This document shows, piece after piece, positions 2,251-64,000 of a stretch of 64,000 bases of DNA (positions within the stretch are counted from its first letter, which is position 1; each line of letters begins with the position of its first letter). The position numbers and the translations under genes are program-made. The notes under the pieces were generated by a model, which worked only from the letters and a program-made list of their open reading frames with translations, did not search any database and was not told where the DNA came from. Source of the DNA: a virus (lineage: Duplodnaviria; Heunggongvirae; Uroviricota; Caudoviricetes). The stretch is from positions 1 through 64,000 of IMG/VR virus record IMGVR_UViG_2778261638_000005; one strand, written 5' to 3'.

Positions 2251-2353
2251 GTTAAATCTCCAGATAGTCGCAGCACCCGTTGCGCCGCATACCCGGCCAT
2301 TTTATTACCTTAAAAACCATATATGTATAGAAATGTCATCAATACGAACAGTA

Positions 2354-2444: not shown

Positions 2445-2702
2445 ATGCAGCAGTATCACTATCCACTGGAAGACGGATTTACCGAAAGGGTTCACACGCC
2501 GGGAGGCGTCAGATCACTGGTGGAGGGATCGCACTTGATGAAATTACTCCGGGATCTCGATAAAGATGGATTCAATGTCGATGGCCCACTTGCCGAACTG
2601 ACTGCACTGATTAACTACGTAACCAGCTCACAGATGTCTATGCGGGATCTGCAAACACATCTCGACTATTGTGCCGAACAATTACGAAAACAAATCCGGT
2701 AA
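2445..2702 (+). CDS. Hypothetical small protein (85 aa from ATG; frame opens at TTG 2427), oriented opposite to the flanking virion genes
   Basis: ORF with GGAGAAG RBS about 8 nt upstream of ATG 2445; followed by a GAAA-tetraloop hairpin; no family recognised. Confidence 0.4.
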   Translation: MQQYHYPLEDGFTERVHTPGGVRSLVEGSHLMKLLRDLDKDGFNVDGPLAELTALINYVTSSQMSMRDLQTHLDYCAEQLRKQIR

Positions 2703-16692: not shown

Positions 16693-16985
16693 TCCTGTTC
16701 ACTGGCCTCTTTGGCCATCTTCAAATACTGTTCAGGGCAATGCGCCATAACGCGCTGAAACAGTTCCAGCGCCAGATTGCGTTGCCCCTCATTAAATGCC
16801 ATTGCCATAGCGTCCATCGGTGAGATAGCGGAAAACACACGGCCTTTCTCCAGCACCGACCAGACAACGCGACGCCCCTGTTCACTGCTCATGACAAAGC
16901 GAATGTCATCAATTTCACGCTGCGCCATGTCACGTTGCTTACGGGCGTTTTCTTCTTTCAGTTGATCGTCTTCGTAATCTGTCAT
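16689..16985 (-). CDS. Hypothetical protein (98 aa)
   Basis: ORF translationally coupled between portal and scaffold genes. Confidence 0.4.
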   Translation of the reverse strand: MTDYEDDQLKEENARKQRDMAQREIDDIRFVMSSEQGRRVVWSVLEKGRVFSAISPMDAMAMAFNEGQRNLALELFQRVMAHCPEQYLKMAKEASEQE

Positions 16986-18661
16986 TGTGATTGCCCACCC
17001 TGACCACTAACTGCATTCGCCATAGCTGACAAAACACTCGGATCCGAAGTTTTAGCTTCGCTTAGCGTCTTGGCACCCTGTGCCGCCGCCATCCCCATCG
17101 CCATCATTTGTTGCTGCTGTTGTTGCTGTGCCCGTTGCTGGCGAGTCTGCTCAACCTGTTCCTGCGGAACAATGACGGTTGGAGACACTCCGGACATATC
17201 AGCGAATGCATCGATCGCCTGATCAACGTTGAGTTTGTCGAGAGCTTCTGGTTTCGCTTGCGCAAGTTGACCAATGAAGTTGACCGTAGACGCCAGACTG
17301 GACAGGCCGATAGACTTCTGCGCCTGAGCCATGACGGAAATGTATTCGACCTTCAGGGGCATACCTTCCATCGCGTCAGGCGGTGGCGGCAGCATTTTTT
17401 TACGCACCATCATCGAGAAAGCGCGGTCAATGAGAGGATTAAGACATTCGTCGTTCAGACGCTCCAGAACCGGCCCCAACATCAGAAGTTTTTCTTCTTT
17501 CATTTCGATCACCGCTTCAACAGGCATCGAGCGGGTATTGATGTTCTGCAACATCATGAACAGATCGACAAAGTAGGCGCTGTTAATGATTTGGCGAGTG
17601 TCCTGAATGTCTGCTACCAGATCTGCTGTACTGGGGTTAACCAGATAAGCAGGCCTGAAACCATCCTGACCAGTAATCTGATCGATATACGTGATGTCGC
17701 CAGGAAGAAGGGAGGCGCGCTGATTCTTGAGGGAAGTCGGAGCAACCATCGGCGGATTGGTGGCTTTATCAATCAACTGCGACTTGCGCTTCTGGAGAAG
17801 CTGCAATGCCTTAACAGGTCCAAGCGCCAGCATACCCGGGCATGATGATCCATAAACATCTTCGCCGTTAACTTCCCAGCGCGGAGCCATAATTGGAAAC
17901 TCATCGAATCCGGACTCACGCAACAACTTGTCGTTATCGCCACCAACCTCGTAATAAACCGATTTGAATGGCTTGTTCTTGCTATCCAGCTTCGATGTAT
18001 CGCGGTCAATGTTCGGGTAAACCGAATGCATCACTTCAATCCACTTCTCGTAGGTGCCGCTTTCCCACATGCTTTTTACGGATTCGCTGACGTTATTTAG
18101 CCCGAACTCCTGAACAAGCTGACGAACAGTCATAGAGAACTTGCGAAAACAGGTGTCCACACTGCCACGAGGTGAGTTAGCCAGGTAGTAACTGCCTATC
18201 GGGAATGGCATTGTGCGAATGATGTCCTCGTCATCCTCCAGCACTGCCATTGCACCAGTGCTGTATGTGCCGAGGCTTCCGTATAACTGCGGCAGAGACT
18301 GATAGAGATTCGACTTATTGAACATATCGTTCATGCGGTTCTGCACCGCCTCAAGCCACAACTTAACAGGGCCATAATCCATCATTTCAGGATCTGGCGT
18401 AGCCAGGCGAAACCACGGACGCGCGGGGCTTGTGATGCCTGACATCATGCCGCTGGCGAGAGTGCGCGCCGCCATAGTCCCGGTCGAATCAATAATGCGT
18501 GTATTGCGTCGATCGTTACGGTTGACCTCAGAAGTCAGAAAGCGGGAACCACGCGGGTTGATGTAATCACTCAACTCGCGCCAGTGCGGCTCGAACGACT
18601 GACGCTCGCTTTCAAGTTGTGCGAACTGTTTGTTCAATCGCTCTTTAGTTGTTTCCGCCAT
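16982..18661 (-). CDS. Portal (head-to-tail connector) protein (559 aa)
   Basis: Size and position upstream of scaffold/capsid; Gln-rich C-terminal tail typical of T7-type portals. Confidence 0.7.
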   Translation of the reverse strand: MAETTKERLNKQFAQLESERQSFEPHWRELSDYINPRGSRFLTSEVNRNDRRNTRIIDSTGTMAARTLASGMMSGITSPARPWFRLATPDPEMMDYGPVKLWLEAVQNRMNDMFNKSNLYQSLPQLYGSLGTYSTGAMAVLEDDEDIIRTMPFPIGSYYLANSPRGSVDTCFRKFSMTVRQLVQEFGLNNVSESVKSMWESGTYEKWIEVMHSVYPNIDRDTSKLDSKNKPFKSVYYEVGGDNDKLLRESGFDEFPIMAPRWEVNGEDVYGSSCPGMLALGPVKALQLLQKRKSQLIDKATNPPMVAPTSLKNQRASLLPGDITYIDQITGQDGFRPAYLVNPSTADLVADIQDTRQIINSAYFVDLFMMLQNINTRSMPVEAVIEMKEEKLLMLGPVLERLNDECLNPLIDRAFSMMVRKKMLPPPPDAMEGMPLKVEYISVMAQAQKSIGLSSLASTVNFIGQLAQAKPEALDKLNVDQAIDAFADMSGVSPTVIVPQEQVEQTRQQRAQQQQQQQMMAMGMAAAQGAKTLSEAKTSDPSVLSAMANAVSGQGGQSQ

Positions 18662-18675
18662 TTCAATGACTCCGG

Positions 18676-18882
18676 TTACTGACCAAGTAGCGTTTTACCG
18701 CTGGTATTAGCGGTTGATGTGTCGCCCTGAGAACCGGTAAGCAGCGTAGAACTACGACCAGCAGCAGCGCGACGGCGACGAGTTTCTTCGTCGCGGGCAT
18801 CAACAACGGCGGCATCCTGCTCCTGTGGTGCTGCCTGAACTTCTGGTGTTGCAGGCACTGATGGTGAGCTACCCATGCACAT
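18676..18882 (-). CDS. Small hypothetical protein (68 aa), low-complexity
   Basis: ORF just upstream of portal gene; may not be real. Confidence 0.25.
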   Translation of the reverse strand: MCMGSSPSVPATPEVQAAPQEQDAAVVDARDEETRRRRAAAGRSSTLLTGSQGDTSTANTSGKTLLGQ

Positions 18883-18972
18883 ATCAATGACTCCGTACGC
18901 AATTAAATTATTACCAATTTAACCACATATGATTTATTTATCGTAGTCGGTTGACATTTAACGCACGAATTA

Positions 18973-18987
18973 TTACCTTTCAGGTAA
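18973..18987. promoter_or_regulatory. Palindrome TTACCTTTCAGGTAA, second copy of the regulatory cassette (upstream of portal-region genes)
   Basis: Identical 15-mer to 2354..2368; nearby CATATGTGGTTAAATTGGTAA element at 18911..18931. Confidence 0.5.
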
Positions 18988-19309
18988 CCAAAAAGTTCAT
19001 TCCGGTTACTAACCTGACTGGCTTGTCGTTAAATTGAACAGGTGGAGTGAGCTTTTATTTTGAGCAGTACGGCGTATGGCACATGCGCCGATAGCGGCCT
19101 GGATACGTTTAAGGGGCACCCTCCCTTGCTCGGGCAAACGAACCAGGTAGCCGGAATGTGCAAGTCGAGCGGTTTTATTCCGCGCACGGGGATTCACCAT
19201 CCCGGCGATTCGGTGTGACGCCTCGGAAGAGACGAGGGTACAACGATGAGAGCATTTATGGAGCCGCGACAAAGTGTGGTGCCTTAACAGGCTAAGTGCT
19301 CTCAGCGTT

Positions 19310-19386
19310 GTGGCATTAGCTCAGTCGGACAGAGCAACCGCCTTCTAAGCGGTTGGTCGCAGGTTCGAATCCTGCATGCCACGCCA
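19310..19386 (+). tRNA. tRNA-Arg (anticodon UCU), phage-encoded
   Basis: Cloverleaf by eye: acceptor GTGGCAT/ATGCCAC, D-arm GCTCAGTCGGACAGAGC, anticodon arm ACCGC-CTTCTAA-GCGGT, T-arm GCAGG-TTCGAATC-CTGC, 3' GCCA. Confidence 0.85.
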
Positions 19387-19548
19387 GAATCACGCCTAAG
19401 GACCGTGATGCCAGAAGTTCCAGTGCTTGGCGGTGATGGTTTCCCTTGAAGGACTATCACCGCACTTTTTACAGCAGGACGCCATTGCGATGACTTCATG
19501 CTGTAAACCCGTACAGCCACGGAAGGAAGAACTCATTGCTTCCAGTTC

Positions 19549-19572
19549 GCCCGGTTCGCCGGGCATTTTTTT
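19549..19572 (+). terminator. Intrinsic terminator GCCCGG-UUCG-CCGGGC + U7 downstream of tRNA, 12 nt upstream of the Gp49-like start
   Basis: GC stem, UUCG loop, run of 7 T. Confidence 0.6.
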
Positions 19573-19583
19573 AAGGTGAGATT

Positions 19584-19940
19584 ATGAACGACCAGCAAAT
19601 CGAAAAAGAAATCGTTGAGAAAGGCAAAACGGCACCGCGAGTTACGCCTCAATATATCGAAAGCATCATTCTTGAAGAGCATTTCTTTACTGCTTATGAC
19701 GGCATTCGTGCCGCCAATATGGGCGTTGGCGATTCATGGACAGCGCATAACTCTACAGACCTCCTGACTTTCTGCGTACTGGTGCTGAAGAATGGCTTCA
19801 CCGTCACCGGAGAGAGTGCCTGTGCAAGCCAGGAAAACTTTGATGCAGAAATTGGTCGGAAGATTGCCCGGCAGAATGCTGTAAACAAAATCTGGATGCT
19901 CGAAGGTTACTTGCTGAAGCAGAAGCTAAGCGAGCAATAA
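19584..19940 (+). CDS. Gp49-like (N4 gp49 / Sf6 gene 66 family-like) protein, 118 aa
   Basis: Sequence resembles the small prophage protein family common in enterobacterial prophages (recollection); AAGGTGAG RBS; opposite strand to flanking genes. Confidence 0.5.
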   Translation: MNDQQIEKEIVEKGKTAPRVTPQYIESIILEEHFFTAYDGIRAANMGVGDSWTAHNSTDLLTFCVLVLKNGFTVTGESACASQENFDAEIGRKIARQNAVNKIWMLEGYLLKQKLSEQ

Positions 19941-21506: not shown

Positions 21507-22099
21507 TGATTACCATCCTGACGTTCTTTGAGTCGCTTCCTGGCTGCTGCTATGCGATCAGCAATTGTCACATTCACATTAACATCCAGACGTTCTTTGA
21601 ACGCGTTGACATCAACATGCTTACCAATCAGCTCAAGGTTCTTCACCTTGTCAGGCCATTTAATTTTTTTGAGGATTGTCTCTATCGAATCCTCGTTCAT
21701 GTTCATGATGGTCGATGACAGATCAAAGCCACTAAGCGTAGTGCGCCAAATTTTCGGCCACTCACGGATTGGTTTAAGGCTCCCATCGTCGTTGAGGATG
21801 TCGATCACGTCCATCTGGTCGATCTCCACCAGGCGCATGAGAACGTAATCAGCACTGACGCGCATTCGTTTGTTGCGCTCCTCCATCAACTCGGCAATCC
21901 GTTTTTGAATGCGTTCATCGCGCATCATGACACTGGCTTTAACTGCCGCTGTATTTGGGGAGAATCCTGCGTTAATCGCTGCCTGAGTCTGGTTTTCAGG
22001 CGTTTTGATGTATGACTGGCAATAAGCCTCCTGCATTGCTGTTAGTGGCTTAAATTGCGTTGATTTGCGTTTATAGGTTTTAGGTTCAGCAGGCATCAT
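21503..22099 (-). CDS. Terminase small subunit (about 198 aa; start set at MMPAEPK)
   Basis: Precedes and overlaps large subunit; upstream part of the long ORF contains a terminator hairpin, so the internal ATG is preferred. Confidence 0.6.
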   Translation of the reverse strand: MMPAEPKTYKRKSTQFKPLTAMQEAYCQSYIKTPENQTQAAINAGFSPNTAAVKASVMMRDERIQKRIAELMEERNKRMRVSADYVLMRLVEIDQMDVIDILNDDGSLKPIREWPKIWRTTLSGFDLSSTIMNMNEDSIETILKKIKWPDKVKNLELIGKHVDVNAFKERLDVNVNVTIADRIAAARKRLKERQDGNQ

Positions 22100-22150
22100 A
22101 ACCACCGTGGTAATAGTTACCGTTGTGGTAATAGTATCATGCAAAATAAA

Positions 22151-22168: not shown

Positions 22169-22217
22169 AGTATTCAAAACCCATCAAATTCATCATGCAT
22201 AATCTACTCGTGACATG

Positions 22218-22556
22218 TCACACTATTAATTTCGTTTCATGCCAGCCTTTAGTCACCCAGCATTGCGAGTCACCATTACACGGGCATGAATTAACTGGAA
22301 CTCTCTCGCCGCACTTACCGCAACGTTTTCTGCTGATCGATTTTATACGCCCGCGCACGCGTGCATCATCCTGGCGGATCAGTAACGCTATATACTCACC
22401 AAATTCGTAAGGCGCACGCCCGGGGCGACGCGTGGCACAGTTACGCTCCAGCATTTCAATTTCCTGAGCATCAAGCACAATTTCCAGCTTACGCACACCA
22501 GATGCAGCTTGTCTGGCTCTCTGAGCGGCTTTGCGCTCTGCTGATGATTTAGCCAT
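22218..22556 (-). CDS. Hypothetical protein with C-terminal Cys-rich zinc-ribbon-like motif (112 aa)
   Basis: CGKCG...CPCNGDSQC motif; basic N-terminus. Confidence 0.4.
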   Translation of the reverse strand: MAKSSAERKAAQRARQAASGVRKLEIVLDAQEIEMLERNCATRRPGRAPYEFGEYIALLIRQDDARVRGRIKSISRKRCGKCGERVPVNSCPCNGDSQCWVTKGWHETKLIV

Positions 22557-25215: not shown

Positions 25216-25560
25216 TCAGAACTCTTCGATATTCCAGCCGCCACCTGCTTTCTTTGGCTTAACCGTTACCCCGATGATTCGGAACGGATACTGATCTGCG
25301 GCGACTTTGGTTTTCACCCTGGCGTCGTCGGTCCAGAAACCTTTCACTTCATGCAGTTCCATCTCACCAGTGGCGAGCATCACAGCGAAATCTGGCGTAT
25401 AGAACGTGTTGTCAGCCAGCCGCAGCTTGATACCCTCGAACCGATACCAGGCGATTTCCCCTGCACGTTTACGCTGCTCAAGGTGCTGGCAATACGCAGA
25501 TTCTGTTTTGTTCATCTGGCCTGTTTTGAGTCGACCAAGAGCCTGTATCTGCTTTCTCAT
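25216..25560 (-). CDS. DUF1064-like phage protein (114 aa)
   Basis: Sequence resembles the DUF1064 family common in lambdoid nin regions (recollection). Confidence 0.5.
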   Translation of the reverse strand: MRKQIQALGRLKTGQMNKTESAYCQHLEQRKRAGEIAWYRFEGIKLRLADNTFYTPDFAVMLATGEMELHEVKGFWTDDARVKTKVAADQYPFRIIGVTVKPKKAGGGWNIEEF

Positions 25561-25563
25561 GAT

Positions 25564-25640
25564 TTACCCCTGAGGTAATTAAAAACCACATAAGACACGA
25601 AATCAATAGATTTTAGAATATTTCATTACCCAGAAGGTAA
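25564..25640. promoter_or_regulatory. Third copy of regulatory cassette: palindromes TTACCCCTGAGGTAA (25564..25578) and TTACCCAGAAGGTAA (25626..25640) flanking a TTGATT-17-TTTAAT promoter-like element
   Basis: Minus-strand reading: TTGATT, 17 nt, TTTAAT, then the palindrome overlapping the leader/RBS of the DUF1064-like gene. Confidence 0.5.
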
Positions 25641-25785
25641 TTATTGAGGCGTAAAAAAATGCGCTATCGCGCTGGTATTACTTGATAAATCCTGCCGCCT
25701 TTCCCCGCCTGTATTCCTCCATCAGCCACTGCGCCGGTGTTATTCCCCCCAGGGTGGCGGCGTTAGGCATGCACTAAAGCGCGCA

Positions 25786-25859
25786 AAATCATTTGATACC
25801 GTTTTGAATTTTTTTTGATACCACCCAAAACGGCACAACGAAAAATTATTTGATACTAA
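25786..25859. repeat. Right-end transposase-binding-type repeats (ATTTGATAC motif x3)
   Basis: AAATCATTTGATAC 25786..25799, TTTTGATACC about 25814..25823, AAATTATTTGATACT 25843..25857; inverted relative to the left-end copies. Confidence 0.6.
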
Positions 25860-26593
25860 TCGGGAGTGCTTTTAGGGTATGGCTGAACCCTGAATAGCTT
25901 AGTATTTAGCCGCTTCCTTGCTCGCTTGTTCAGGAACCTGATGTAGCGATACTGATTAAATTTGTGCACCACGGCACGCTCTTTATTAGCCCGTAAATAC
26001 ACGCCTCGTTGTCCACCGCGCTTAATTGCGTTCATCGTTATCTCGTGATACCACTCACCATCCAGCTCGTAGAACGTGCTTTCATGGCTGCCAATAAAAT
26101 CAAAATTCGACGCCTGATACACAACGCCTGCGCGTCCGCAGCGTTCGTCAGCAAAGGACTGAACCCACTCCACTGACGGATACAGTAATCTGATAACTTT
26201 CAGCGCGTAGCTGATGGCCCGTGATTCAGAGTTGCGGGGCATGTCGTCGTGTAGCCACATGCGATTCAACTCCATATAGCCCCGGTTATCCGTTTCAAGC
26301 ACGACACGACGACCTGAGTTGGGGTTAAGGGCATATCCCCACTGGAGAACGCCAACCAGATCGCGTCCGCTGAATACTCCCAGGTGGAGGTAAGAGTTAT
26401 TCACAAAACGGCGGGAATAGTGCTTTGTCTGAATAATTGTGCGGGCCAGCCAGCAGGATATGGTTTCAACGCGCAGCTCCTTTGAACCATAGCCAACAAT
26501 CTGGCCTTCATACTCAATAACGCACGGTTTCGTCAGAATGCGTGATTTTTTCTCTTTTCCCACAATGTTTCTCCGTGGGATGCTCGCAGGCAT
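25856..26593 (-). CDS. mom: Mom DNA-modification protein (start codon uncertain)
   Basis: Directly downstream of and overlapping com, last gene before the element end as in Mu; about 245-aa ORF. Confidence 0.7.
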
Positions 26594-34789: not shown

Positions 34790-36269
34790 TAATCACCTCA
34801 ATACTGACACCACCGGGAACAAACAACGGGTTGCTGATACCGTTCCTGCGGGCCAGCCGTTGCCAGTTCCGGCTGTTTCCTGTGTAACGGTACAGAGCCA
34901 CCATTGCAGGCATCGTCTCCGGCAGGCGGTGCGTTTCACTGCCCGCCAGTTGCAGCCCGCGTTTTTCCAGGTCGGCAACAACCAGCAGACGCAGTTGCGT
35001 AAGCTGAACGCTGTCTGTCGAAAAGCCCTGCTCAGATGCCGTCAGAATGACGGTATCCAGCGCTGCCCCCAGCATGGTGGCTGTTTTTCCGATATCGGAC
35101 ACACTTTCAAATACCGGGGGCGTGGCTGTACCACTGTCTGAAAAGGATACCTGTGAAAAGCCGCCGTCCGGGGTTATGGCAGTTAACTGTAACTGTCCCT
35201 GTGTGACGGTAGCAGATGTGCTGCTGGCCCCGCTGGCTGTGCCGGTTGTGGTGGACGGAGCATCCAGTACAGGTGCACGGGCGGCATTATCCATCCGGCG
35301 ACTGAAATCCAGTGCCGCAGTCAGTGCCTGGCTTGCTGCCTCCGCCCGGTATGTCTGCGCCGCTGCCAGCATGACGTAGTTCAGTGTGGCAATATTTTTT
35401 TCTGCAACCGGACTGTTGTACGAGGTTGTGATTGTCCCCTGTCTGCCTGTGGTGGCGGCATGGCGACGTTCGAATCGCTGCGCCAGACGGTTCCAGGTGG
35501 AAAATGCTGTCCGGGTATCGCATAACGATGAAACGCCGGACAGCGCCCCCATCAGCGAGGAGGCCAGCATGGCAGGCTGGTTAATCAGGCTGGTCACAGA
35601 GCCTTTCATCGCAGAAAGCGATCCCATCAGACCGCTGACAGTCTGCGTAACCCCCAGATTGTCCACCGCATCACTGATATCATCGATGACACCGGTTACA
35701 GCTTCCATCACGGCGGTTGCCGCCGCAGTGCCATCTTTTACGGTCTGCCAGACAGAGGACAGCGTATCTCCCAGAGAACCGGTTACAGCAACGGCCTGTG
35801 CCGGTACGGCTGCACTGGTGTCTGTCTCTGAGTCCGGGGCAGTATCCTGCAACGACGGATAAACGGTAACGGTGAACGCGTAATAATTCAGTTCATCCGC
35901 TTTAGTGCGGCATTCCCATGAATCCACCATGACGTCCACAGTGCCGAAATCAGGATGTACCAGCTCACCGCTACCCGGAGCATCAAGAGCATCCATCAGC
36001 GCACCCGCTTCATCTCTGGCTGTTTCTGCGTTGCTGTTCAGAATGCAGGCGCTGAATGTACGGGAGCGAAGCTTTTTCCCCAGGTCATTGACGCCGCCGG
36101 TATCACGTAACGGGTACTCGCGTTTAACCAGGCGACGTCCGCCAGCCTGTTTTTGCTCCTCGATGACGAGAAACGGCACGTTACGAAACGTGCCTTTGCC
36201 GGTTGTTTTCTTACCACCGCTGATTTTATCCCGGACAGCATTAACGGCATTTAAAGCATCTTCAAACAT
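34782..36269 (-). CDS. DNA circularisation protein N-like (Mu gp43-like), 495 aa
   Basis: Position after tape measure; Ala/Thr-rich middle typical of the family. Confidence 0.65.
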
Positions 36270-62672: not shown

Positions 62673-63391
62673 ACCTCTCTATAGCACCCGAAACTTCGCC
62701 CTGGTGGATGGTAAACGTCTCTCCCTGTTTCCGGAGGCGTACTCATGGGTTCTGGCTTTGCCTGTATGCTGATCACCGGATCGGGTATCTGCTGTCCGGA
62801 AGCCACCTTTTTCGCCCAATCATCGAGCAGCCTGCGCGCGTGTTTCTCAACCTCAATCTCGCTAAGCTGGCGCTGATACATTGCACGGCGGGTATCACAT
62901 ACGACCCAGTACATAACCGGATGCCGCCACGGGAATCTTTCGGGACCACCAGGATATAAACTTTTTTCCTTGCTGTACCGGTGAAACTCCGTCATCACAT
63001 CGTCAATGGTGACGCCAAGAACCATCTTGCTGTCTTTGCACCACTTGATGAATTGCCCTGGCGACGGCCAGAACGGAGAATCACTGGCGCGGGCGTGGCG
63101 CATACCAGCAGAAACCTGTTCACGGGTTCGGATCCCCCCTTCAGCAAACGCAGCAATCCACTGCTGTTTTGCAGCAACTTCCTGCTCTGGCGTCTTCAGG
63201 TTGGTTACCACTGCCGCCGGAAACAGTTGTTTCAACTGTTTGAAAAGGGCATCAACAAGCCTCTCTGCTGACATGTTCACTACGTTGTCATTGTTGGTGT
63301 ACTGATGCTCATAACCTGACATGCGAGAAAGGGCCTCTCCGTCACGGTTTTGTATTGCGGTAAAAACGTTGTTCACAAGAAATCCTCCCAT
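62609..63391 (-). CDS. Lambda P-like replication protein (helicase loader); 3'-terminal about 25 codons derive from the Mu-like end
   Basis: VSAGMRHARASDSPFWPSPGQFIKWCKD aligns with lambda P VNAGMRVARRQNRPFLPSPGQFVAWCRE (recollection); reading frame runs across the inferred insertion junction. Confidence 0.7.
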   Translation of the reverse strand: MGGFLVNNVFTAIQNRDGEALSRMSGYEHQYTNNDNVVNMSAERLVDALFKQLKQLFPAAVVTNLKTPEQEVAAKQQWIAAFAEGGIRTREQVSAGMRHARASDSPFWPSPGQFIKWCKDSKMVLGVTIDDVMTEFHRYSKEKSLYPGGPERFPWRHPVMYWVVCDTRRAMYQRQLSEIEVEKHARRLLDDWAKKVASGQQIPDPVISIQAKPEPMSTPPETGRDVYHPPGRSFGCYREVNHLILLKNPGGKWIKRDLMG

Positions 63392-64000
63392 GCTTCAGGG
63401 CTGTTCCAGTGCGGAACGTTGTTATCAGGTAATGTTGATTGCTTCTGTCTGCTAATCTGCAGCCGCCTTGCCAGCTTCTGCTCCCACTGTGCCTGATGGT
63501 ATGCCTTACCCTCAGCCATCCAGTAAATTCTGAACTCTGCAAGTTCCTGTGCCGTTGGCAGACTGTCCAGGTAGATCCCCTGCAATGAGCTTTTCCGAAG
63601 AAAGTCATCTGATGGCTGCCATTGTTCATGCATGACAAATTTGCCTAATTGCCCTGGCCCACCAGGAGGAACAAAGTTATTCATCACGGCGTTGTTTGCG
63701 CCGGGGTCATGAGGCACAGAATTCCCGTTTTTTGTCCTGCTCTCCCTCTCTTGGTTAAATGACTGGTTATATGACTGGTTCTGGATCCCGTTTTTGGGAT
63801 CATTCAACATCCCGTTTTTGGGATCATTCAACATCCCGTTTTTGGTTATATTACCGTTTTCGGGAACATTACCGTTTTCGGGTTCATTCCCCCCTTCCCG
63901 GTTGCCTTTAATGTTCCCGTTTTTGGTTATATTAAGAGAGAAAACCCGCACTCTTTTCGTCGCTCCCTTTCTCTCTTCGGTATCTGAAATAAGCCCCATT
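63373..64000 (-). CDS. Lambda O-like replication initiator, C-terminal part (5' end outside window)
   Basis: Immediately upstream of P-like gene; coding region contains iteron array; Asn/Gly-rich repeats encoded by the iterons. Confidence 0.55.
   Translation of the reverse strand, partial: MGLISDTEERKGATKRVRVFSLNITKNGNIKGNREGGNEPENGNVPENGNITKNGMLNDPKNGMLNDPKNGIQNQSYNQSFNQERESRTKNGNSVPHDPGANNAVMNNFVPPGGPGQLGKFVMHEQWQPSDDFLRKSSLQGIYLDSLPTAQELAEFRIYWMAEGKAYHQAQWEQKLARRLQISRQKQSTLPDNNVPHWNSPEAWEDFL
63722..63936. repeat. Iteron array (ori-lambda-type) inside the O-like gene
   Basis: Core CCCGTTTTT(G)G about six times; two full 24-bp units (C/G)ATCCCGTTTTTGGGATCATTCAA at 63785..63832, each an ATCCC...GGGAT inverted repeat; A/T-rich on the low-coordinate side. 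Confidence 0.65.

Follow-up and report, generated by a model that had tools for sequence, protein, structure and literature searches.

A probable divergent control region with a putative Rep operator between the head operon and a structured RNA of a phiV10-type prophage

The interval 18903–18988 of the DNA analysed here (64,000 nucleotides in full, referred to as the window) probably forms the centre of a divergent control region in which two promoters stand back to back. It would combine an operator for the phage repressor Rep, a rightward sigma-70 promoter and an activator-dependent promoter of the head genes, with repressor bridging between two sites. This reading builds on sequence, repetition, conservation and homology to annotated sites, from which we infer that Rep binds here, that the two promoters exist, that one of them depends on an activator and that Rep bridges two sites. 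A divergent control region had been suggested in an earlier note on this DNA, and it is supported by a homologue of the operator that is annotated as a repressor site, by a TTGACA hexamer at fixed distance from the operator, and by a shared module of a conserved box and a −10-like hexamer. The 400-bp noncoding stretch described in the same note does exist as an intergenic gap, i.e. the 427 bp between a gp3-like ORF (18676–18882, minus strand) and a tRNA-Arg(UCU) gene (19310–19386, plus strand), but most of it is occupied by a conserved structured RNA. The cassette itself is of a known kind: a repressor operator that carries an annotation in a sister phage and that is placed here in a divergent promoter region.

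Judged by its sequence, the window carries a phiV10/epsilon15-type (Uetakevirus) prophage of the phiV10 lineage, whose host is E. coli. Region 18600–19600 is 98% identical to phiV10, the O157 typing phages 9 and 10, TL-2011b, ZX5 and phiv142-3, while the identity amounts to 70–82% for the Salmonella phages epsilon15, SPN1S and SPC32H, the Enterobacter phages Tyrion and BUCT554, and Klebsiella phages. Collinearity with phiV10 covers positions 1768–25774 and 62684–64000. These two stretches are split by a Mu-like prophage of 36.9 kb (25775–62683) that has inserted into the P-like replication gene phiV10p44 (phiV10 position 34936–34939); it carries a Mom gene (25856–26593, minus strand) and end motifs with repeated TTTGATAC at about 25790–25860. 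Since this element interrupts the phiV10-type prophage, the Rep system may be inactive here.

To the left of the gap, the gp3-like ORF (68 aa, PHROG 831) is the first gene of the head operon and is followed by the portal gene (16982–18661, minus strand; Pfam Head-tail_con, E = 2.5e-187). On its right side, the tRNA-Arg with anticodon UCU, which was called by ARAGORN as well as by Rfam (tRNA, 73.3 bits), adjoins the 3′ end of the RNA. Two hairpins resembling intrinsic terminators, each with a T run after it (19430–19463 and 19549–19564, plus strand; region 19430–19572), separate the tRNA from an ORF of the gp49/66 family (19584–19940, plus strand; Pfam Phage_gp49_66, E = 2.7e-34). In phiv142-3 (MN187550, our locus L002, 3717–3785), the tRNA-Arg is annotated on the strand opposite to the ARAGORN and Rfam call.

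The putative Rep operator ATTACCTTTCAGGTAAC occupies positions 18972–18988 and, as a palindrome, has no strand. It corresponds to the 17-bp consensus ATTACC-N5-GGTAAT with one mismatch, i.e. 11 of the 12 specified bases. The inner 15-mer TTACCTTTCAGGTAA was found at 18973–18987, exactly where it had been placed before, and forms a 6+6 inverted repeat around a 3-nt centre. Its exact second occurrence at 2354–2368 is part of the site ATTACCTTTCAGGTAAT (2353–2369, no strand), which matches all 12 specified bases and is flanked by the tailspike gene (ATG at 2250, minus strand) on one side and by ant, the anti-repressor gene, on the other; the homologous epsilon15 site at 19895–19911 is annotated as a repressor site. 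The picture of a palindrome in two copies nevertheless has to be replaced by that of a genome-wide operator, for which the window contains six sites with at most one mismatch to ATTACC-N5-GGTAAT (starts at 2353, 18972, 22098, 22116, 25563 and 25625). The shorter pattern TTACC-N5-GGTAA likewise yields six sites, as opposed to 0.9 expected, and the 15-mer with up to three mismatches has nine matches in the window as opposed to 0.86 expected.

Two of the further sites, ATAACCACCGTGGTAAT and GTTACCGTTGTGGTAAT (22098–22132, no strand), stand in tandem between a terminator and the probable ATG start codon of the small-terminase gene terS (22097, minus strand), and their epsilon15 homologue at 12–27 is annotated as a repressor site. 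In the ORF list, as in the phiV10 annotation, terS begins with a TTG at 22177, and this extension encloses both tandem operators as well as the terminator. The ATG at 22097, just after the second operator, is more likely the true start and is shared by epsilon15, SPC32H and Tyrion. A third assembly (25563–25641, minus strand) is located upstream of the DUF1064 gene (25216–25560, minus strand) and consists of operators at 25563–25579 and 25625–25641 together with the box CTTATGTGGTT (25594..25584).

The second element of the cassette was likewise recovered as proposed, with CATATGTGGTTAAATTGGTAA as the minus-strand reading of 18911–18931. This 21-mer is unique in the window at up to three mismatches, and the supposed first copy at 2304–2325 is only a degenerate relative (CATATATGGTTTTTAAGGTAATAA versus CATATGTGGTTAAATTGGTAATAA). 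Moreover, palindrome and box are separated by 27 nt in one cassette and by 40 nt in the other, the box near the tailspike gene being CATATATGGTT (2325..2315, minus strand), which matches the assembly with the operator at 2353–2369. Given the different gaps and the merely degenerate second element, the cassette is not the second copy of a duplicated block, as had been assumed; rather, the two cassettes are independent assemblies of two kinds of site.

The same operator is dispersed over the genomes of related phages. Epsilon15, SPC32H, phiV10 and Tyrion contain 12–18 sites each when up to two mismatches are allowed, compared with 1.4–2.3 in shuffled sequences. All perfect ATTACC-N5-GGTAAT sites are intergenic and occupy equivalent places in each of these four relatives: a tandem pair immediately ahead of the terS start codon; single sites roughly 100 bp upstream of gp3, in the interval separating ant from the tailspike gene, upstream of the lysis cassette and upstream of int; clusters flanking rep on either side, which overlap the spacer or −10 hexamer of the early leftward and rightward promoters PL and PR; sites upstream of gp40; and a pair upstream of the RuvC/DUF1064 gene. 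In the epsilon15 record (NC_004775.2), seven such sites are annotated as "protein_bind: repressor (lysogeny)". The epsilon15 site at 2931–2947 (ATTACCTAAAAGGTAAT), annotated as "repressor", aligns with the window site at 18972–18988, and the operator is kept in all 8 aligned phages. The GenBank record of phiV10 annotates none of these operator sites. For the phiV10-type prophages of E. coli, including the O157 typing phages, the cassette confirms the same dispersed operator network as annotated in epsilon15. A mere chance repeat, or a purely historical duplication devoid of function, would fit the fact that only two exact copies of the 15-mer are present in the window. This explanation can be given next to no credence, as none of 100 shuffles reached the nine matches observed, all perfect sites are intergenic, and the site positions are maintained across phages whose flanking sequences are only about 70% identical; the conservation data effectively refute it.

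From these homologies, 18972–18988 is best read as a putative operator for the phage's own Rep repressor, an HTH protein of the SPC32H family. The Rep protein of phiV10 matches the solved SPC32H Rep structure (PDB 5D50) with E = 4e-42. Rep is reported to bind palindromic sites as a tetramer, which the anti-repressor Ant disassembles (PMC9638917). A tblastn search of the 64-kb window with SPC32H and phiV10 Rep gave no match to a rep gene, which reflects the window boundary rather than absence of the gene, since collinearity with phiV10 places rep just past position 64000. The anti-repressor gene ant is present at 2445–2702 (plus strand; PHROG anti-repressor match). Kim and Ryu reportedly described ant as LexA-controlled in 2013. 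A canonical LexA box, CTGTATATTCATACAG, at 2408–2423 overlaps the ant promoter of the window and is consistent with such control; LexA box and ant together constitute the SOS-controlled induction switch known from SPC32H.

On the plus strand, the TTGACA hexamer reported earlier was indeed found at 18951–18956, where it serves as the −35 element of a predicted sigma-70 promoter (18951–18979) with a 17-nt spacer, the −10 hexamer TACCTT at 18974–18979 and a predicted start near 18986. In each of 7 phages scanned by position weights, the arrangement TTGACA-17-TACC(T/C)T ranked first at an identical offset, with 9.3–11.4 bits compared with 10.7 bits for the 95th percentile of the best score in random 140-nt pieces of this prophage. 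The −35 element matches the consensus in 6 of 6 positions and the −10 hexamer in only 3 of 6 (T1, A2 and T6), which is why a strict consensus scan does not call this promoter. Across the 8 aligned phages, the distance between TTGAC(A/C) and the operator is constant at 15 nt, while the bases in between vary.

The −10 hexamer lies inside the left half of the operator. Hence, in a lysogen, Rep bound at 18972–18988 would occlude the rightward promoter. The promoter would fire away from the portal gene into a structured RNA of about 240 nt and the tRNA-Arg(UCU), both of which follow downstream on the same strand, the RNA being conserved. If both terminators were read through, the rightward transcript would also reach the gp49/66-family ORF. 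Two further ideas about this site were rejected: for the IHF site that epsilon15 annotates next to the operator, the corresponding sequence of the window is not conserved across the 8 phages, and a role of the palindrome as an RNA hairpin or terminator is at odds with a stem of only six A/U-rich pairs and the lack of a terminator call.

Toward the head genes, a near-invariant block of 37 bp (18903..18939, minus strand) is read as the head-operon promoter, without a −35 hexamer. Its minus strand, AAATAAATCATATGTGGTTAAATTGGTAATAATTTAA, contains the box CATATGTGGTT (18931..18921) and the −10-like sequence TAATAA/AATAAT (18913..18907), and an operator half-site ATTACC (18910–18915) is embedded as well. 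The gp3 ATG (18882) follows 25 nt past this −10-like sequence, after a GGAG Shine–Dalgarno sequence. In 8 of 8 phages, the block is near-invariant, and its conservation exceeds that of the beginning of the gp3 reading frame. The box, with the general form CATATRNGGTT, recurs on the coding strand upstream of gp3, the tailspike gene, gp23/lysis, DUF1064/RuvC and the replication gene gp40 in every genome examined, the comparison for the latter four loci comprising 4 relative genomes. In the three structural and lysis operons, the box is followed after 7–10 nt by a −10-like hexamer (TAATAA/AATAAT, TAGAAT/TAAAAT or TATGAT), which is a perfect TATAAT at the lysis operon of phiV10.

A position-weight scan of 7 phages revealed no conserved sigma-70 −35/−10 pair toward the portal gene. 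The head operon needs its own promoter, since it is separated from the large-terminase gene terL by a terminator as well as by the tRNA and an ORF on the opposite strand. A −10 hexamer lacking a −35 partner and a conserved box near −30 across operons are features resembling those of T4 MotA-box or Mu Mor/C promoters, and we infer that the block 18903–18939 drives the head operon as an activator-dependent promoter. Here the −35 hexamer would be substituted by the CATATGTGGTT box (about −31 to −21), and the promoter probably needs an activator made by the phage. A candidate for this function is a 112-aa "transcriptional regulator" (PHROG 536) encoded at 22218–22556, just upstream of terS; another one is the PerC-like early gene of phiV10. 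The position of the box relative to the −10 hexamer differs at gp40, and the box also occurs at PL of phiV10 and Tyrion, so that it may not be a late-specific element. A sigma-54 or DnaA-box interpretation of TGGTT/TTAACCACA was dismissed, as these motifs are at odds with the required spacing and consensus and are missing from the copy at the tailspike gene.

Alternatively, the invariant block could only assist the rightward promoter, as its UP element or upstream region, or could bind an architectural protein such as IHF, with the head genes being transcribed from elsewhere. Its A/T-richness and location at −40 to −70 of the TTGACA promoter would suit this role, the record of epsilon15 lists predicted IHF sites for these regions, and a well-scoring sigma-70-like promoter toward the portal gene is lacking. 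We nonetheless regard this alternative as rather unlikely. Four other operons are preceded by the module of box and −10-like hexamer, which in every case lies on the strand that encodes the gene behind it and is also present at sites without a divergent TTGACA promoter. In addition, a terminator and opposite-strand genes intervene between terL and gp3, and the IHF site predicted in epsilon15 falls on the other side of the operator, where it is not conserved.

The placement of the palindrome relative to these promoters could also be taken to mean that it is no repressor operator at all but an upstream activator site of the late promoters (head, tailspike and lysis), where a late activator dimer, bound at about −65 to −79, would bring in RNA polymerase. 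In favour of this, a distance of 45–58 bp separates the palindrome from the −10-like hexamer downstream of it at three late operons, within the range of class I activators, and these late promoters have no −35 hexamer. However, the palindrome clusters that flank rep overlap the spacer or −10 hexamer of PL and PR, and the palindromes at terS and DUF1064 lie directly over the ribosome-binding and start regions; both are positions of a repressor. The distance of the operator centre to the late −10 hexamer, at about −78.5 for gp3, −65.5 for the tailspike gene and −69.5 for lysis, also follows no constant helical phase, and the annotators of epsilon15 assigned the palindrome to the repressor. An activator site is therefore quite improbable, and the repressor operator is retained here.

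With the operator located so far upstream and out of helical phase, direct occlusion of the late promoters by Rep is unlikely as well. Conceivably, they are silenced in another way. At PL and at the DUF1064/RuvC promoter, full operators come in pairs whose centres are 62 bp apart in 4 of 4 complete relatives; the window holds the DUF1064 pair only, with centres at 25571 and 25633 and the same 62-bp distance. Such a spacing amounts to about six helical turns and points to one Rep tetramer that bridges both sites. Upstream of gp3, the half-site ATTACC at 18910–18915 is part of a 17-mer that overlaps the late −10 hexamer and has its centre at a distance of exactly 62 bp from that of the full operator. 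A single Rep tetramer could hence bridge this half-site and the full operator and cover the late −10 hexamer, too. At the tailspike gene, the register is 49–50 bp, so bridging over 62 bp is not general, and silencing of the late promoter at gp3 by bridging is put forward with low confidence.

Behind the rightward promoter, positions 19067..19310 (plus strand) encode a conserved structured RNA of roughly 240 nt that is supported by covariation and scores 154 bits with its covariance model. Its core helices were delineated in an alignment of 49 non-redundant sequences made with MAFFT, which was not fitted to any structure. P1 pairs 19070–19077 with 19083–19090, and P2 pairs 19094–19095 and 19098–19102 with 19143–19147 and 19150–19151. 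P4 (19189–19192 with 19200–19203) presents a loop that forms a pseudoknot with a downstream GGTG (19195–19198 with 19212–19215), and P5 pairs 19221–19225 with 19233–19237. Between helices with compensatory changes, the alignment shows invariant strands such as GGTAGCCGGAATGTGCAAG (19146–19164). The terminal helix P6 (19241–19310) folds at −31.9 kcal/mol (z = −5.6), has different yet complementary sequences in other phages, and abuts with its 3′ end the first base of the tRNA.

In the five core helices (P1, P2, P4, P5 and the pseudoknot), 94.8% of the alignment cells pair, compared with 27–49% if the partners are slid by 1–3 columns. Changes on both sides were observed for 13 of the 28 core pairs, over 119 cells, and the observed values were reached in 0 of 500 shuffles. 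Among the examples are an exchange of G-C for A-U in P1 (23 versus 25 sequences), of C-G for G-C in P5, and of CACC:GGTG for AACC:GGTT in the pseudoknot. The abundance of G-U pairs assigns the RNA to the plus strand, as is the case for the TTGACA promoter and the tRNA. A protein-coding reading of 19009–19300, for which the records offer ORFs on either strand (e.g. PhiV10p04 and mEp460 gp37), was rejected, as compensatory base changes mark the conserved parts and the length of the variable parts is not the same from one relative to the next. The hypothetical proteins over the RNA (19009–19272, minus strand, in the window, and homologues) are probably spurious. ORFs annotated there comprise PhiV10p04, mEp460 gp37, Stx2k_16, one of BUCT554 and one of a Klebsiella ST11 record, and their strands differ. 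The sequence that links promoter and RNA core in Uetakeviruses (19020–19066, GTCGTTAAAT...GGTGGAGTGCGCTTTCAGGTGTG; our locus L009, 3834–3900, minus strand) resembles the 3′ half of P6 in other members; it may be what is left of a tandem copy, or else mark a recombination boundary.

The RNA extends far beyond this group of phages. Region 19069–19313 shares about 83% identity with noncoding DNA from lambdoid phages (cdtI, mEp460, Stx2c and Stx2k phages), and 19069–19231 is about 80% identical to P1 and P7. A covariance-model search of phage genomes revealed one copy per genome, with 133–175 bits for intact copies, and no second copy in the same phage. Epsilon15 retains a truncated remnant of 40 bits (our locus L003, 1840–1960) that consists of the first hairpin only, the remainder having been lost along with the tRNA; the module is accordingly dispensable for this phage. 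The RNA was further detected in 1,071 of 5,426 complete E. coli genomes (about 20%), in at least 120 viral contigs of IMG/VR, and in 27 species-representative genomes, mostly of Enterobacteriaceae and including an Azonexus. Nothing is annotated over it by PGAP in 1,170 E. coli records, Rfam 15 gave no match other than the tRNA even at E values up to 10, and literature searches on the invariant strings of the RNA and on small RNAs downstream of cI returned nothing relevant and nothing matching, respectively. The RNA hence appears to be undescribed, and it is widespread and well supported by covariation.

Its genomic context is recurrent. In lambdoid phages and in one Stenotrophomonas phage, the RNA is positioned 100–400 nt downstream of a cI-type repressor gene on the same strand, heading the early-left operon, and wherever these loci could be scored, a sigma-70 promoter was found 46–115 nt upstream of it. 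In P1, the RNA belongs to the ban operon, which is under C1 control, and is flanked by trnI and ban. A strong hairpin with a T run follows within 300 nt of the RNA in 50 of 80 distinct loci; in the window, two of them come after the tRNA. A general linkage to tRNA genes was considered and abandoned, given that a tRNA is adjacent only in some Uetakeviruses and P1 and absent from most loci. By this context, the RNA of the window is predicted to be an early transcript under control of the phage's own repressor.

Its position behind repressor-controlled promoters and the frequent terminators downstream suggest either a cis-acting modifier of RNA polymerase or a processed riboregulator. We tentatively propose, as a possibility that does not quite reach even chances, that the operator-controlled promoter drives an undescribed class of structured RNA (about 190–240 nt, with P1, P2, P4, P5, P6, a pseudoknot and the invariant strand GGUAGCCGGAAUGUGCAAG) that acts as a cis antitermination device or as an early riboregulator. 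In the first case, the RNA could modify RNA polymerase for processive antitermination and would functionally resemble the put elements of HK022. The second option, a riboregulator released by processing, is raised by the direct contact between the 3′ end of the RNA and the tRNA in the window.

The cassette itself adds little, and the larger value resides in the unannotated RNA behind its promoter, just outside the cassette's own coordinates. This RNA is always part of the leader of an early operon that is controlled by the phage's own repressor, in P1 as in about one fifth of the complete E. coli genomes. Should it modify transcription elongation, it would constitute a second antitermination system made of RNA alone; with any other function, it would still be a new early RNA of phages that is readily accessible to genetics. 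For the cassette, the analysis maps one promoter under repressor control and a box shared by late promoters in a form open to testing. This map is useful for the engineering of reporter phages based on phiV10 and helps to understand how structural genes are turned on by an anti-repressor under SOS induction.

Among known RNAs, the put elements of HK022 and HK639 are comparable by position only, as they too are structured RNAs that occur shortly after a repressor-controlled early promoter and are followed by terminators. They differ in their size of about 70 nt with two stems, as opposed to about 190–240 nt with six helices and a pseudoknot for the RNA of the window, and HK022 contains both putL and putR, whereas the latter RNA is present in a single copy per phage. 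For this comparison, HK022 putL was recovered via a primer sequence given in PMC9378689 and read in the HK022 genome, while the putL-like feature of HK639 was read and searched with the model; homology to put was rejected, as neither of the two showed similarity in sequence or model.

The operator network itself is shared with the annotated sites of epsilon15 and the Rep/Ant/LexA switch of SPC32H. The 17-bp consensus ATTACC-N5-GGTAAT is the same, the positions at gp3/portal, ant/tailspike, terS, the flanks of rep and the RuvC/DUF1064 gene are homologous, and a LexA box stands in front of ant in the window, too. In contrast to epsilon15, which has partly deleted the RNA and tRNA module, the operator of the window additionally overlaps the predicted promoter of this module. 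The C1 system of P1 is analogous in that one immunity repressor acts on many operators dispersed in front of separate operons, and the C1-controlled ban operon carries the same structured RNA. C1 is, however, unrelated to Rep, and its operators are asymmetric 17-mers. The late genes of P1 are switched by Lpa, the late-promoter sequence of which is unrelated to the box of the window. As in OL and OR of lambda, operators overlap the −10/+1 region of lytic promoters, and paired sites are likely bridged by an oligomeric repressor; yet lambda has only six operators, all of them at the switch, while sites of the type found in the window also occur at the promoter regions of late operons. The stoperators of mycobacteriophages, finally, are asymmetric, orientation-dependent and placed inside transcription units, whereas the sites of the window are palindromic and located in promoter regions.
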